In this document: positions 2,331 through 8,858 of the stretch, piece after piece | Layout: each line of letters begins with the position of its first letter | Position numbering within the stretch: position 1 is the stretch's first letter | NCBI GenBank assembly: GCA_002327305.1 | Contig: DCUZ01000065.1 | Span: forward strand, 1-62,010 | DNA: 62,010 bases | Origin: Holophagales bacterium UBA2201 | GTDB lineage: Bacteria > Acidobacteriota > Thermoanaerobaculia > UBA2201 | Direction of reading: 5' to 3' | The notes under the pieces: model-generated | The model's database searches: none | Seen by the model: the letters and a program-made list of their open reading frames with translations, nothing else | Told to the model about the DNA's origin: nothing | Program-made: the position numbers and the translations under genes

Positions 2331-3442
2331 GCGTCGCGGTCCTGCCGGCGGAGGGACCGGGCGGCCTCAGGCGTTTCTGGCGCGTCCCATTCGCCCTTTA
2401 TCAGAACGACCGGAACTGGGTGGCGCCCCTCCGGGGCGATTACGCGCACCTCTTTTCCCCCTCGAATCCGTTCCTCAAGCACGCGGCGGTCAAGCCCTTC
2501 ATCGCCTGGCGCGACGGCCGCCCGGTCGGCACCATCGCCTATGTCCAGGATGAGAACCACATCCGCTTCCACGAGGAAAAGGCCGGCTTCTGGGGCTTCT
2601 TCGAATGCGCCGACGACCCGGAGGCCGCCGCGGCCCTCTTCGCCAGCGTGGAGGAGGAGGCGCGGGCGGCCGGGATGGAGCGGCTCCTGGGGCCCATGAA
2701 CCCCTCCACCAACGACTCCTGCGGCCTCCTCGTGGAAGGGTTCGACTCCCCCCCCGTGGTGATGATGCCCTACAATCCCCCCCGCTACGAAGCGCTGGTC
2801 GAGGCCAACGGCCACGCCAAGGCCAAGGACCTCTACGCCTACACCACCCCCATGACCGGCAAGTCCCTGGGCCGCCTGGAGCGCATCGCCCGGATCGCCT
2901 ACGCCAAGGCCCCCATCACCGTCAGGCCGGTGAACCTGAAAATACTGGAAGAGGAACTGGTCCCCGTCATGAGCATCTACAACGAGGCCTGGGAGAAGAA
3001 CTGGGGGTTCGTCCCCCTGACGGAGGAGGAGATCCGCGACCTGGCCAAGCGGCTCAAGCCCATCATCGTCCCCGAGCTCGTTCAGGTGGCGTTTGTGGAC
3101 GGCGACCCGGCGGCCTTCATCATGACCCTCCCCGACGCCAACGAGGCCCTGATCAAGATCCGCGGCCGGCTGGACCCCTGGTCGCTCGTCAAGCTCCTCT
3201 ACTGGTCGAAGCGCATCCGCGGCCTGCGCCTCGTCACCCTGGGCGTCAAGGCCAAGTACCGCGTCATGGGGCTCGACGCCTGCCTGTATTATGAGAGTTT
3301 GAAACGGGGCCTGACGATGAAGTACGACCGCGTGGAGGTCTCCTGGATCCTCGAGGACAACACCATCATGCAGAAAGCCATCCGGCTGATCGACGGGCGG
3401 AAGTACAAGACGTACCGGATTTATTCGAAAGAGATCGGCTGA
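2327..3442 (+). CDS. GNAT-fold acyl-CoA N-acyltransferase-like protein (bCerS-like candidate)
   Basis: GTG at 2327 overlaps the upstream TGA (GTGA). The ORF-track entry 1568..3442 is over-extended at its N-terminus. Only the part from VSVAVLPAEG onward looks like real protein. Confidence 0.6.
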   Translation: MSVAVLPAEGPGGLRRFWRVPFALYQNDRNWVAPLRGDYAHLFSPSNPFLKHAAVKPFIAWRDGRPVGTIAYVQDENHIRFHEEKAGFWGFFECADDPEAAAALFASVEEEARAAGMERLLGPMNPSTNDSCGLLVEGFDSPPVVMMPYNPPRYEALVEANGHAKAKDLYAYTTPMTGKSLGRLERIARIAYAKAPITVRPVNLKILEEELVPVMSIYNEAWEKNWGFVPLTEEEIRDLAKRLKPIIVPELVQVAFVDGDPAAFIMTLPDANEALIKIRGRLDPWSLVKLLYWSKRIRGLRLVTLGVKAKYRVMGLDACLYYESLKRGLTMKYDRVEVSWILEDNTIMQKAIRLIDGRKYKTYRIYSKEIG

Positions 3443-3448
3443 ACAGCC

Positions 3449-3483
3449 GGTTCCAAGTTCCAGGTTTCAGGTTTCAGGTCCCC
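3449..3483. repeat. Heptamer tandem array (ggttcca agttcca ggtttca ggtttca ggtcccc)
   Basis: Starts 7 nt after the stop at 3442. Confidence 0.7.
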
Positions 3484-3725
3484 CCGCCCGCCATATCGGG
3501 AATCCAATCACTATTCTGCTCGCCAGGAATCATGTAGCGTCCTCTGGCCGCCGAGGACGGCATCGGCGCCCCGTCGCATGCCTCGCGCGCTCCCACAGGG
3601 GCGGAGGGGCGCGCCGCCGGTCCGCCCCGAGGCCTTGCCCCCAAAAGCGATGAAGAAAGAAACAGGAGCAGGAACGGCTCGCGGCGGCGCGTTTGAGCCG
3701 CCCCAAGGCGGCGGGCGGCGGGCAC

Positions 3726-3750
3726 AAAAAAAAAGGGCATCGTGTCCCTT
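3726..3750 (-). terminator. Possible intrinsic terminator of the AT-rich island transcript
   Basis: On the minus strand, AAGGG-8 nt-CCCTT is followed by a T9 run (A9 at 3726-3734 on plus). The stem is only 5 bp. Confidence 0.35.
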
Positions 3751-3813
3751 CTTTCTCGTGCTCTTCGCTTTTCAAATCAGCGGTGGGGTGGCCTTGAGCA
3801 ACATATTACTCGG

Positions 3814-3835
3814 AAATAGGTGACTGTCCCTAATT
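3814..3835. repeat. GGGACAG/CTGTCCC repeat copy R1 (aaataggtgactgtccctaatt)
   Basis: Lies 13 nt downstream of the stop of the 3848-4246 gene. Confidence 0.8.
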
Positions 3836-3847
3836 ACACTAATTACA

Positions 3848-4246
3848 TTAATAATGCGGAGTACTGCTTCGTATTAGTTTTTGTGATTGTGGATCAAAAT
3901 ACAATTGATAAATAAATGCTCCATTTTGGTTGAAAATATTCATATAGATATAGTTTGTTTTTCGCACCGCCCTCTTTGAGTAATCGCTAAATCGGAATAA
4001 TATGTACATTTCCTCGCAATCCTGATCAAGAGCAACAGCACCCTTTTTTAAGATCGCATGAATATAGAACTCATCCTCAAATCTAAATGTATAACGATCT
4101 CCATAAAGACTTTCAAGCTCACGAATTTTTCTTTTATCTTCATCGGAAGGATGTGCACATCCTGCAAAAGATAAAGAAATAAATAAGACCCAAAATATTG
4201 CTTTACGGACGCTAACAGCACTTTGCACATGATGTTTCAAGTGCAT
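3848..4246 (-). CDS. Hypothetical lipoprotein (AT-rich)
   Basis: Signal peptide with lipobox LSFAGC. AT-rich codon usage unlike the neighbours. No recognisable domain. Confidence 0.6.
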   Translation of the reverse strand: MHLKHHVQSAVSVRKAIFWVLFISLSFAGCAHPSDEDKRKIRELESLYGDRYTFRFEDEFYIHAILKKGAVALDQDCEEMYILFRFSDYSKRAVRKTNYIYMNIFNQNGAFIYQLYFDPQSQKLIRSSTPHY

Positions 4247-4298
4247 TGGAATTTCCTTCCTTCAAGCATTAAATTCCTTTCGAACATTTAAAACCTCG

Positions 4299-4343
4299 TA
4301 GGGACTGTGTCTATTTTCCTAAATAGGTAACTGTCCCTAATTT
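4299..4343. repeat. Inverted doublet of the repeat (R2 tagggactgtgtctatttt + R3 aaataggtaactgtccctaattt), REPIN-like
   Basis: Two copies in opposite orientation separated by tcct. Confidence 0.75.
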
Positions 4344-4418
4344 CTGATAGTTCCCGAGCAGGGTCCCGGCGGCCAAAACGATCAGGACTACAAGAATCTG
4401 ACGCGCGGCGCTCTTCAT
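4311..4418 (-). pseudogene. 35-aa GC-rich signal-peptide stub (MKSAARQILVVLIVLAAGTLLGNYQKL...) that reads into repeat R3 and stops
   Basis: ATG at 4418. The hydrophobic N-terminus is encoded by a GC-rich ~75-bp patch between two repeat copies. The reading frame terminates inside the repeats. Confidence 0.25.
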
Positions 4419-4438
4419 AGTCTATGTTGATCCTTCAT

Positions 4439-4461
4439 AAAATAGGGACTGTCCCTATTTT
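4439..4461. repeat. Perfect 23-bp palindrome AAAATAGGGAC-T-GTCCCTATTTT (R4), possible bidirectional terminator
   Basis: 11-nt arms are exact reverse complements and are flanked by A4/T4. Lies 22 nt downstream of the stop at 4483. Confidence 0.8.
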
Positions 4462-4482
4462 CCCTAGATTCCTAAGTTACTA

Positions 4483-5076
4483 TCACCAGCAATTAGGGCC
4501 TAACGGTTTGGAAATCCGATGCAGGACTTGTGGGAGAGAGTTGCAGTCCAGGACTTCTCCGCTGGCAATCATGTCCTCAAACTGCGAAAGAACAGGGCTT
4601 GGCACGAGAAAATCAGTCCCTTGAACCCGAAGAGAATATAGTTGTTGATATTTGTTCGGCCAGAAGTCCATCACCGGTCTGTCAAGGGAGATAATGCCAT
4701 TCGAGAAGGTTGCTTTTCTCTCGAAATCGGCGGTGCCGACGCAGCCCCACATATGAAAGCGGGCTCTGTAGCCATCGTCAATTGTAGATATCGAGAGCTT
4801 CGTGCCGAAAAATCCCGTCGCAAATTTCCACTCGTCTGCGATTTCCATTTGCGGGTAAATCAATTTCGGGTCCGGTTGAGGAGCATTCGCCTGGTCTGGA
4901 TGCCATATCTCCAATTCTTGTTCGAATTCGAAAGTCAAGGAGCGTTCTACCATTTCCATATTTTGCTGAAGCTTCCGATGAGCCTGCTCTCTCACCGAAT
5001 CAGGCATCCGTCGAGCACAGGAGAGCAACGCAACTTCCAAGAGCAGTGCTCCAATGAGCAATTTGCGCCCAGTCAT
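4483..5076 (-). CDS. Hypothetical lipoprotein
   Basis: MTGRKLLIGALLLEVALLSC (lipobox-like LLSC). GAGAGG lies 7 nt upstream of the ATG at 5076 (alternative ATG at 5082). The ORF-track N-terminus (MTVPKSLSL) is translated repeat sequence. Confidence 0.6.
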   Translation of the reverse strand: MTGRKLLIGALLLEVALLSCARRMPDSVREQAHRKLQQNMEMVERSLTFEFEQELEIWHPDQANAPQPDPKLIYPQMEIADEWKFATGFFGTKLSISTIDDGYRARFHMWGCVGTADFERKATFSNGIISLDRPVMDFWPNKYQQLYSLRVQGTDFLVPSPVLSQFEDMIASGEVLDCNSLPQVLHRISKPLGPNCW

Positions 5077-5100
5077 ATTCATGCCTCTCATTAAGCGATT

Positions 5101-5132
5101 TAGGGACAGTGATTTAGGGACAGTCACCTATT
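5101..5132. repeat. Tandem repeat copies R5a/R5b (tagggacagtgattt + tagggacagtcacctatt)
   Basis: Directly upstream of the 4483-5076 gene. On the minus strand it reads CTGTCCCTAAAT twice. Confidence 0.8.
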
Positions 5133-5269
5133 ATTGCCTTCCTTTAATCCCCATGCCTGGGGAAAGGGCCCAGGGCTGGCCATTCAACCATTTGCCCGCC
5201 TTCCACCCTTCCCGAGATGCCGGATCAAGTCCGGCATGACAGCATCGGCAGGGCGAAAGGGAAAATCTT

Positions 5270-5301
5270 GGGACAGCCACCAATATTCAGGGACAGCCAC
5301 C
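5270..5301. repeat. Two copies of GGGACAGCCACC spaced 20 bp apart (R6)
   Basis: 5270-5281 and 5290-5301 are identical 12-mers sharing the GGGACAG core. Confidence 0.75.
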
Positions 5302-5327
5302 TTCGCGAAGTCGCGGCTTCGCCGCGC

Positions 5328-5543
5328 CTACCGCTCCACTTCGAAGTCGGCGCTGGGCTCCAGGAGGGGGTCCACGCAGATGAGGGCGGTCTGGGTGATG
5401 GGGAGCATGTAGGTGTGGCGCTTTTCCCTGACCTTGATCTGCAGTTCGTAGTAGCCGTCGTCGGAAATGGCGATCAGCGACCCTTCGACGTTCTTGAAGT
5501 CCATGACGGGGCAGGTGATGTAGACCTTGCTGGGAAATTCCAT
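5328..5543 (-). CDS. Hypothetical 71-aa protein downstream of ligA
   Basis: High-GC codon usage. Start lies 11 nt after the ligA stop. No domain recognised. Confidence 0.5.
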   Translation of the reverse strand: MEFPSKVYITCPVMDFKNVEGSLIAISDDGYYELQIKVREKRHTYMLPITQTALICVDPLLEPSADFEVER

Positions 5544-5553
5544 GGCTCGCTCC

Positions 5554-7847
<2,294 letters not shown>

Positions 7848-7867
<20 letters not shown>

Positions 7868-8858
7868 TGTCTTTTTTACCTTCGAACGCCGCCTGGACCT
7901 CCTCGTACAGCCGCTTCTCCTGCCCCAGGTACTTGGGGGAGAGGTGGAGGGGGATGACCTTTTTGGCCCCGCACCGGCGGGCCAGGCGTCCGGCCTGGGT
8001 GGTGGTGAGGTGGTTGCGCTCCCGGGCCCGCCTGGCCTCCGAGGCCTCGAAGGAGGTCTCGATATAGAGAAGATGGACGCCCTTGAGCAGGGCCGCGGCC
8101 CGCGACAGGTTTTCGCGGGTGGCGGCGAAGTCCACCACATAGCCGATGGACTGCCCCTCGGTGAGGATGACCAGCTCCTCGCGCAGGCGCCCGAAGGGGC
8201 GGGGCCCCAGGGGCGTTTCGACGGGAGTGGAGGAGCGGACGCCGGAAAGGACGGCTTCCTTCAGGTTCTGGATCCATCCGCCGGGGGAATAGCCCAGCCG
8301 CTGGAGGGCGTCCTTGTTGATGTTGATGTGGGTCTTCTCGTCGAGGCGGTAGGCCAGGACGGGGGTGCCGTGGTCCAGGACCGCCGCCCGCAGGGTCAGG
8401 GAGGGGTCCTCGATGAGGGCCCGCCCCGCCTTGCGCCGGCGGCGGTTGGAGAGGACGAACCTGTCGCGCGCGGAGAAATCGGCGCTCCGGACCCAGGCGC
8501 CGTCGTATTCATGGGCCGTCACCGCCAGGGGGTAGTCCTCGCTGACGTTCCAGGTGAAGGCGCGGAAGAGGCCGTCCACGTTGCCGATGAAGCCCGGCGG
8601 ACCCCACAGGTGGAGGGGCTCCCCGCGGGTGATGGAGAGGCGGATGAACTGCGCGGCGCTGACGAAGTGGTCCAGGTGGGTGTGGGTGACGAAGACCGCC
8701 TGGGCCCGCCGCAGGAGGCGCGTGGGGAGGCGCGGGGCGTACCCGAGGTCGAAGAGAAGCCCCCTCCCCTCCCCCACGATGTCCACGTAGAGGCCGGCGT
8801 CGCCGCAGGGCGGAGCAGCGGTCTGCGGAAGAAATTTCATGCGCATGGCCGAATGCAT
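7848..8858 (-). CDS. MBL-fold metallo-hydrolase (RNase Z/BN-like)
   Basis: THTHLDH motif. Start is ambiguous (ATG at 8858, 8846 or 8840). Confidence 0.8.

Follow-up and report, generated by a model that had tools for sequence, protein, structure and literature searches.

The low-GC island at positions 3814-5301 of contig DCUZ01000065.1 from Holophagales bacterium UBA2201 carries two small lipoprotein-like genes and is punctuated by copies of a palindromic unit of about 22 nt, (A)AATAGGTGRCTGTCCCTAATT, whose core sequence is GGTGRCTGTCCC. Throughout, the window means the whole stretch of DNA that was analysed, 62,010 nt in length. Our comparisons across genomes show, at the level of sequence, that this unit is the cognate flanking repeat of REP (repetitive extragenic palindrome)-associated tyrosine transposases (RAYTs) of the type termed TIRYT, RAYT group 1 or TnpA-Y1 subclass 2.1. 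We consider it very probable that the island holds RAYT-type repeats packed into a small foreign segment, with no transposase in the 62 kb, and that these repeats were either imported with the island or made locally. The repeats are of a known kind, the REP or terminal inverted repeat sequences of group-1 RAYTs, and the peculiarity of this locus is their density in a small acquired island that lacks the enzyme. What had appeared to be a puzzling cassette-like structure would then be a horizontally acquired fragment strewn with repeats of the REP type, in which one gene is under selection and the other is dying.

The unit and its transposase in other genomes

We scanned one genome per GTDB species, 596 Gb in all, for an exact 19-mer of the unit, and all counts for other genomes given here are among the matches listed. 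The 19-mer was found in more than 116 stretches of DNA from at least about 77 assemblies and at least 14 labelled phyla. Most are Planctomycetota; the further labels include Hydrogenedentes, Sumerlaeota, WOR-3, Omnitrophota, Fischerbacteria, Acidobacteriota, Myxococcota/Deltaproteobacteria, Verrucomicrobiota, Gemmatimonadota, Elusimicrobia, Eisenbacteria and others. By our estimate, some 17 exact matches would be expected by chance in 596 Gb. A set of 2.9 million viral contigs gave no match to the 19-mer, and searching the literature by 10-12-mers returned unrelated primer matches only. Given that conservation across 149 instances is sharp from position -1 to position +21 and absent beyond, we take the unit to be about 22 nt long; the search itself fixes positions 1-7, and at position -1 either A or T is found. 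The genes that neighbour the unit in these genomes are unrelated.

In at least 16 loci of other genomes, inverted copies of the 19-mer flank an open reading frame (ORF) of 220-240 aa, an arrangement of the REPtron or 'TIRtron' kind. By tblastn, 16 loci have a full-length transposase beside the motif, and 4 others have N-terminal fragments there. A minus-strand copy of the unit lies 52-62 nt 5' of the transposase start in 13 of the 16 loci, and a plus-strand copy lies 0-77 nt beyond the stop, again in 13 of 16. Two of the flanked ORFs matched Pfam Y1_Tnp (E 5e-13 and 5e-14), with no other Pfam domain reported, while scores against NCBIfam REP_Tyr_transpos were 68-72 bits, below the cutoff of 80. 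In blastp searches with the TIRYT sequences of supplement 5 of PMC3733652, the flanked transposases matched aba2776, pca3049 and gsu2396 over their full length at 40-50% identity (E 1e-50 to 1e-75), and their match to the E. coli RAYT was marginal only. They carry a HuH motif (NH[IV]H), a WQ motif, a Y-x3-NP motif in the form Y[IV]E[RHQ]NP and a GRPxG...GRPKK tail. The original prediction had pointed to a cognate RAYT or IS200/IS605 (insertion sequence) TnpA encoded elsewhere; such an enzyme, flanked by the 19-mer, was indeed found in other genomes, but the window holds none. Neither tblastn nor a 14-sequence HMM run with --max detected a RAYT or a remnant of one in the window. An ORF that starts 23 nt past repeat copy R5b (MPGERAQGWPF...) was considered as a RAYT remnant and is not credible as such.

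The unit is identical even where the transposases that it flanks share as little as 37-46% identity (L111, L113 Elusimicrobia and L106 versus L038), whereas REP sequences are normally species-specific. Group 1, or subclass 2.1, is the largest and least understood RAYT subgroup and has been reported to be without REP-like partners. Our observations give the group-1 RAYT of many uncultured phyla a sharply defined 22-nt partner, which does not vary even though the enzymes are down to about 40% identity and which forms doublets like those of REPINs (REP doublets forming hairpins). In three of the transposase loci (L038 2907-2950, L090 and L119) we observed a conserved promoter-like layout abutting the upstream unit, in the order unit, 3-5 nt, TTGAC(A/G), 16 nt, TAnnnT, 7 nt, ATG. 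Such a layout would produce a nearly leaderless transposase mRNA and might allow autoregulation via the unit.

Adjacent copies are mainly arranged heads-inward. Among the matches listed, 57 of 98 adjacent pairs have the order minus, plus, and of these 45 are spaced 24-138 nt apart and 11 are spaced 715-890 nt apart, around the transposase gene. At least eight loci belong to the Hydrogenedentes metagenome-assembled genome (MAG) TH-Jun18-22 and at least six to the Sumerlaeota MAG OFTM353. The Hydrogenedentes doublets (L024, L026, L040, L049, L081, L122 and L127) and the Sumerlaeota doublets (L016, L029, L079, L098 and L101) have a spacing that is constant for each genome, 99-102 nt or 57-58 nt from start to start, with loops that are unrelated between loci. 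Just outside the arms, 16 of 39 doublets have a locus-specific inverted repeat of at least 6 nt and up to 16 nt.

A second recurrent feature is a one-sided tail duplication, in which the 3' end of the unit and a few adjacent bases are repeated in tandem, on the CCCTAA side only. Within 60 nt of the unit we counted 52 partial 3'-suffix copies downstream versus 7 upstream, and a tail duplication was present at 25 of 150 units compared with 24 of 752 control CTAA sites. Examples are CCTAATTACAC at L104, repeated at least 4 times, and CCCTAATTTTC at L023, repeated at least 3 times. Both the tail duplications and the variable loops of fixed length are leads on where and how group-1 RAYTs cut and copy DNA.

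The island and its copies of the unit

The flanks have a GC content of 0.60-0.72 and the island one of 0.33-0.50, bearing out the sharp drop that had been noted on both sides. Gene 1 has a GC content of 0.34 and gene 2 of 0.50; at third codon positions the values are 0.27 and 0.55, respectively, against 0.90-0.92 for the neighbouring ligA, 71-aa and 371-aa genes. Since both measures depart from those of the neighbouring genes, the island is compositionally foreign, and we regard it as a horizontally acquired, low-GC segment. All genes of the region lie on the minus strand. The features of the island are as follows.

R1, 3814-3835, plus strand: exact unit AAATAGGTGACTGTCCCTAATT, 13 nt beyond the gene 1 stop
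R1 tail duplication, 3830-3847, plus strand: CTAATTACA twice in tandem, touching the gene 1 stop codon
Gene 1, 3848-4246, minus strand: 132-aa ORFan with a signal peptide and lipobox-like SFAG-C
R2, 4299-4319, minus strand: decayed unit, left arm of the R2/R3 inverted doublet
35-codon ORF, 4311-4418, minus strand: MKSAARQILVVLIVLAAGTLLGN..., GC 0.50, between R3 and R4, predicted as a gene in L001 and L002, among others
R3, 4321-4342, plus strand: intact unit, AA variant AAATAGGTAACTGTCCCTAATT with one change from the consensus, right arm of the doublet
R4, 4439-4461, no strand: symmetrised unit, a perfect 11+1+11 palindrome AAAATAGGGAC-T-GTCCCTATTTT
Gene 2, 4483-5082, minus strand: 199 aa, with a signal peptide and lipobox-like LLS-C
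R5a, 5100-5113, minus strand: partial 3' copy (CTGTCCCTAA and tail), a tail duplication of R5b
R5b, 5114-5132, minus strand: exact unit, 32 nt 5' of the gene 2 ATG (5082)
Hairpin, 5216-5237, no strand: unrelated GC-rich hairpin ATGCCGGA-N5-TCCGGCAT in the spacer that separates R5 from R6, which has 58% GC
R6, 5270-5281, and R7, 5290-5301, minus strand: two GGGACAGCCACC 12-mers, decayed units of the GG variant with a GGTGGCTGTCCC core
71-aa gene, 5328-5543, minus strand: neighbour beyond R6/R7

The degenerate 19-mer AATAGGTRRCTGTCCCTAA matched at 3815-3833 (plus), 4322-4340 (plus) and 5114-5132 (minus), where 100 shuffles gave an expectation of 0.00, and a repeat finder added five further copies, at 4299-4319, 4439-4461 and 5100-5113 and as two 12-mers in 5270-5301. 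The island therefore holds eight copies, three intact and five decayed or partial. The prediction of at least seven copies thus holds by number, with the reservation that R5a, R6 and R7 are partial or decayed and not full units. When up to five mismatches to the 19-mer were allowed, all seven ungapped matches of the 62 kb fell inside 3815-5301, compared with about 1.4 expected by chance for the whole window by our own calculation. No copy was found in the window outside 3814-5301, as had been claimed from the sequence alone, and contig L007, which extends 4.7 kb past the window start, has no further copy. Every copy in the window is intergenic and each of the five island spacers is occupied, in line with the earlier statement that every gene boundary carries the motif; the coordinates originally assigned to the island and its repeats also hold.

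The palindromic arms of the unit are TAGG(T)GAC and GTCCCTA. R1 and R5b form a perfect 19-nt inverted pair (3815-3833 and 5114-5132), R2/R3 is a heads-inward (minus, plus) doublet of the REPIN-like kind, and R4 sits 22 nt beyond the stop codon of gene 2. R6 and R7, which match 16 of 21 unit positions and have five mismatches each to the 19-mer consensus, are in direct orientation, 20 nt apart, and adjoin the terminator hairpin of the 71-aa gene. The one-sided pattern of tail duplication seen in other genomes recurs in the window, in the two copies of the R1 tail CTAATTACA, in R5a beside R5b and in R6/R7. With three intact copies the island is within the range of the other loci listed, which have 3-5; if decayed copies with up to five mismatches are included, it has seven (eight with all copies) against at most five elsewhere. 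We considered describing the island as the densest cluster anywhere and rejected this, as it holds only when decayed copies are counted. R1 and its tail CCCTAATTACAC... (window 3805-3845) are 90% identical over 41 nt to L071, L104 and L015, which all belong to one Phycisphaerae MAG (CSMAG_2420) whose units all share the same TTAC tail, and this likeness is a weak hint of a donor lineage.

The unit is conserved in sequence more than in its ability to fold. As single-stranded DNA, R1 reaches only -1.2 kcal/mol (z 0.26), no better than shuffled sequence, while the R2/R3 doublet (4295-4347) reaches -9.5 kcal/mol (z -5.6) and R4 -7.8 kcal/mol (z -5.0), and so the original remark that sequence outweighs hairpin strength and that R1 folds poorly was correct. 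On the mRNA, R4 forms a 10-bp hairpin followed by UUUUAU; R4 and R2/R3 both give good hairpins followed by U-runs, whereas R1 and R5 do not. A scan for consensus terminators flagged no copy of the repeat. We conclude that the unit has the behaviour of a repeat recognised by a protein and forming doublets of the REPIN kind. The palindromic form R4, and with less clarity R2/R3, probably serves gene 2 and the stub ORF as a 3' hairpin, either a terminator or a stabiliser of the mRNA. Together with the RAYT-flanking arrangement in at least 16 loci, the doublets and the failure of the single unit to fold vindicate the earlier view that the motif is a recognition site or a REP/REPIN-like element and not a simple terminator.

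Organisms that carry a homologue of the 371-aa gene adjacent to the island provided a sample of 659 kb from 80 loci, in which no copy of the unit was found at up to three mismatches. In L132, the closest relative, the 371-aa gene is 86% identical at the nucleotide level and homology ends right past the gene; the position of the island is occupied by other low-GC DNA that lacks the motif. As different low-GC DNA lies there, the island position is a variable spot.

Origin of the repeats and competing explanations

Several known systems resemble the one described here. Di Nocera et al., 2013 (PMC3733652) describe the inverted repeats of TIRYTs as sharing GGGG[AT][CG]A[CG] and as occurring as singles, dimers or clusters; most of our copies read aGGGACAG, which agrees with this 8-nt consensus at seven of eight positions, and GGGGACAG is found in L028, L047 and L069. 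Quentin et al., 2018 (PMC6006769) equate the TIRYTs with TnpA-Y1 subclass 2.1 and with group 1 of the Bertels RAYT classification, and Bertels et al., 2017 (PMC5581495) reported about 12 copies per replicon for the 16-mers that flank group-1 RAYTs. The transposases that flank our unit are like TIRYTs in their full-length homology, their size of about 220-240 aa and their HuH, WQ, Y-x3-NP and tail motifs, and the repeats are alike in forming singles, dimers and clusters at a moderate copy number. A C-terminal helix-turn-helix (DnaA_C-like) domain is a further character of the TIRYT subclass; Y1_Tnp is the one domain that Pfam gave for the two of our proteins scanned. The repeats differ in that the shared motif of the published account is 8 nt long, whereas here a 22-nt unit is invariant over at least 14 phyla and forms REPIN-like doublets. 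Unlike in TIRtrons, the repeats of the window are clustered in a foreign island without a transposase.

The REP/BIME (bacterial interspersed mosaic element) and REPIN-RAYT systems of E. coli (TnpA-REP) and Pseudomonas are likewise built of short, imperfect extragenic palindromes, with inverted copies flanking a single-copy Y1 transposase, heads-inward doublets as the main form and copies just past gene ends that may serve as mRNA 3' hairpins. In contrast to these, our unit has no stable single hairpin, its transposase is marginal to the E. coli RAYT and the repeat is common to many phyla. The subterminal hairpins of IS200/IS605 elements share a related Y1/HUH enzyme and an asymmetric (bulged) palindrome that confers strand specificity, but our repeats do not form the termini of an insertion sequence present in many copies; they spread independently of the enzyme gene, which is single.

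If the transposase works as E. coli TnpA-REP and IS200/IS605 do, it would act in trans, recognising single units or doublets in the single-stranded DNA of replication forks, and would cut and rejoin a few bases outside the unit, so that doublets are copied into other extragenic positions. The R1 tail, R5a and R6/R7, as partial duplications beside the CCCTAA end, would be scars of this activity. Given the excess of downstream suffix copies in other genomes and the scars in the window, the CCCTAA side is probably the active end. It seems most likely to us that the repeats were imported with the island, or that they were generated locally by a once-adjacent RAYT that has since been lost.

A number of points weigh against this interpretation. 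The absence of further copies covers 62 kb and 4.7 kb of the source genome, and a RAYT or dispersed copies may lie beyond. For subclass 2.1, the study of Quentin et al., 2018 (PMC6006769) reported that REP-like sequences were absent, and our assignment to that subclass is by similarity to TIRYTs and not by the subclass HMMs. REP hairpins characteristically have the conserved tetranucleotide GT[AG]G at their 5' foot (PMC6006769, PMC3733652); this hallmark is missing, as the unit starts AAATAGG and has ATAG at that place. A single unit does not form a stable single-stranded hairpin, only the R2/R3 doublet and R4 folding well, and cutting of the unit by this RAYT subgroup is predicted from related enzymes. 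Finally, three sequence variants (GA, AA and GG) are present together in the island where other genomes usually have one, and their coexistence fits poorly with a single recent import.

Of the competing explanations, the one that survives best is an active, genome-wide REPIN population with its own RAYT, for which the island would merely be the only intergenic-rich, dispensable DNA in the window. The three intact copies, two of them identical, and the fresh-looking tail duplications would suit such a population, and at some 12 group-1 16-mers per replicon (PMC5581495) a stretch of 60 kb without a copy would be unsurprising. However, copies are present in each of the five spacers of the island and nowhere else in the 62 kb or in the 4.7 kb of L007, and none occurs in the 659 kb from relatives. 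As the copies fill the island spacers only and relatives are without them, we favour import or local generation and view a genome-wide population as a less likely source, possible but distinctly the weaker of the two.

We give little weight to a more far-reaching version, in which the CCCTAA end would be the break-and-copy site of a group-1 RAYT that joins or copies adjacent DNA, so that the island would consist of genes captured between repeats. Such a mechanism would give rise to REP-bounded segments such as gene 2, to the tail duplications and to the constant-length, unrelated loops in Hydrogenedentes and Sumerlaeota, and, if true, gene capture by an HUH enzyme would be a way of shuffling genes that has not been described in REP systems.

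That the copies are operators of a dimeric transcription factor co-regulating the lipoprotein genes is more doubtful still. The palindromic core TAGGGAC-N-GTCCCTA, the positions of R5 upstream of gene 2 and of R2/R3 upstream of gene 1, and the abutment of the unit on a sigma-70-like -35 box in RAYT loci, where it may serve autoregulation, are all compatible with operators; R1 and R4 nevertheless lie downstream of genes, the 19-mer is invariant across phyla beside unrelated genes, and doublets and tail duplications are signatures of mobile DNA and not of a regulon. A composite transposon, or a miniature inverted-repeat transposable element, of a DDE transposase, with a 1.3-kb element ending at 3815-3833 and 5114-5132, has even less to recommend it. 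Although the low-GC genes lie between the halves of this perfect 19-nt inverted pair, the pair is oriented tails-inward, opposite to the transposase-flanking and doublet arrangements, and has further copies inside it; no target-site duplication is seen, the bases on the two sides being CTCGGA and ATTGCC, and no locus listed has a DDE transposase beside the motif.

The description of the island as cassette-like, in the sense of an integron-type array with attC-like sites bounding each gene, is not supported, and we consider such an array, or one built by another site-specific recombinase, highly implausible. The resemblance lies in the small ORFans of odd composition and without obvious promoters, each bounded by a related imperfect palindrome, and in the presence of gene 2 in another context on L131, with homology that reaches to within 3-9 nt of R4 and R5a; at a dS of 0.57, intergenic homology to L131 would have been lost anyway, and neither flank of the L131 homologue has a repeat. 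Moreover, among the genes called in the 10 kb or so to either side there is no IntI and no integrase or recombinase domain, the sites alternate in orientation and are 22 nt long without RYYYAAC/GTTRRRY core sites, and elsewhere the unit adjoins unrelated genes and flanks a Y1 transposase, an enzyme of the HUH class. By comparison, attC sites are 55-140 nt long, have R''/R' core sites and all point the same way in an array that also has an attI site. Plain intrinsic (bidirectional) terminators that are alike through local duplication are equally implausible, for while R4 and R2/R3 give good mRNA hairpins followed by U-runs, R1 and R5 fold no better than shuffles, the consensus scan flags no copy and it is sequence rather than structure that is conserved over at least 14 phyla.

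Genes of the island and the surrounding locus

Both genes encode proteins with lipobox-like N-termini (SFAG-C and LLS-C), and neither has a match in Pfam or NCBIfam, in agreement with the original description of proteins without a recognisable domain; the description of both as orphans applies to gene 1 but not to gene 2, which has 211 relatives at the profile level. For gene 1, no homologue outside its own species was found among 5.8 billion proteins. Among 14 contigs that are at least 99.4% identical to the window, two carry independent loss-of-function alleles of gene 1, a frameshift caused by a 1-nt insertion in L010 and a nonsense mutation (C>A, stop at codon 78) in L013, at window positions 3964 and 4015. 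As these alleles occur in near-identical contigs, gene 1 is a decaying ORFan. Gene 2, on the other hand, has a 78%-identical homologue on L131 with a dN/dS of 0.22 (dS 0.57), a ratio that marks it as a real gene under purifying selection. Structure models were unusable for both (pLDDT 48 for gene 1 and 42 for gene 2).

The relatives of gene 2 are representatives from a profile search (50% clustering, E at most 1e-3). They share a core of about 120 aa with conserved W..P, GC, R, LDRPV and Y..LY motifs, and their N-termini (P0011-P0160) carry a signal, a lipobox or a pilin-like methylation motif; the family is one of uncharacterised secreted or anchored proteins. Its profile matched nothing in Pfam or the PDB, and the genomic contexts of three members showed no copy of the motif. 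One member is labelled Phycisphaerae. The 35-codon ORF is signal-peptide-like or transmembrane-like and its reading frame enters R3, so that it appears to be the stub of a gene truncated at R3/R2.

The hairpin at 5216-5237 folds at -9.1 kcal/mol (z -3.0), and several metagenome contigs break there. Contigs that end at 3600-3609 and at 5216-5311 suggested a polymorphism for presence or absence of the island, which we rejected: since these ends coincide with an extreme GC-rich, poly-G stretch and with the palindromes GATGCCGGA...TCCGGCATG and TTCGCGAA, they are assembly breaks. Neither Rfam (gathering thresholds for the whole window; E at most 1 for 3300-5700) nor ARAGORN identified an RNA family, tRNA or tmRNA.

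Between the 371-aa gene and R1 lies a 370-nt non-coding spacer (3443-3813, GC 0.64) with an A9 run and several GC hairpins, for which Rfam gave only a chance-level ctRNA match (E 0.75). Just past the 371-aa gene, at 3447-3492, tandem heptamers GTTCCAG/GTTTCAG run into a C5GCCC box. The heptamer/C5GCCC region is conserved in L132, where it is present twice (1690-1810) and flanks a GTAG-footed hairpin, GTAGCCGCAGGCTTTAGCCTGCG. This GTAG-type hairpin is present in L131 and L132 and absent from the window, and the heptamer-flanked form may represent a REP family native to the lineage. Another patch of low GC content (0.45-0.47), with no copy of the repeat, lies at 7500-7950 between ligA and a gene for a metallo-beta-lactamase-fold protein. 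It contains an ORF for a small membrane protein, 85 aa long in some contigs, with a weak match to Pannexin_like (E 0.01).

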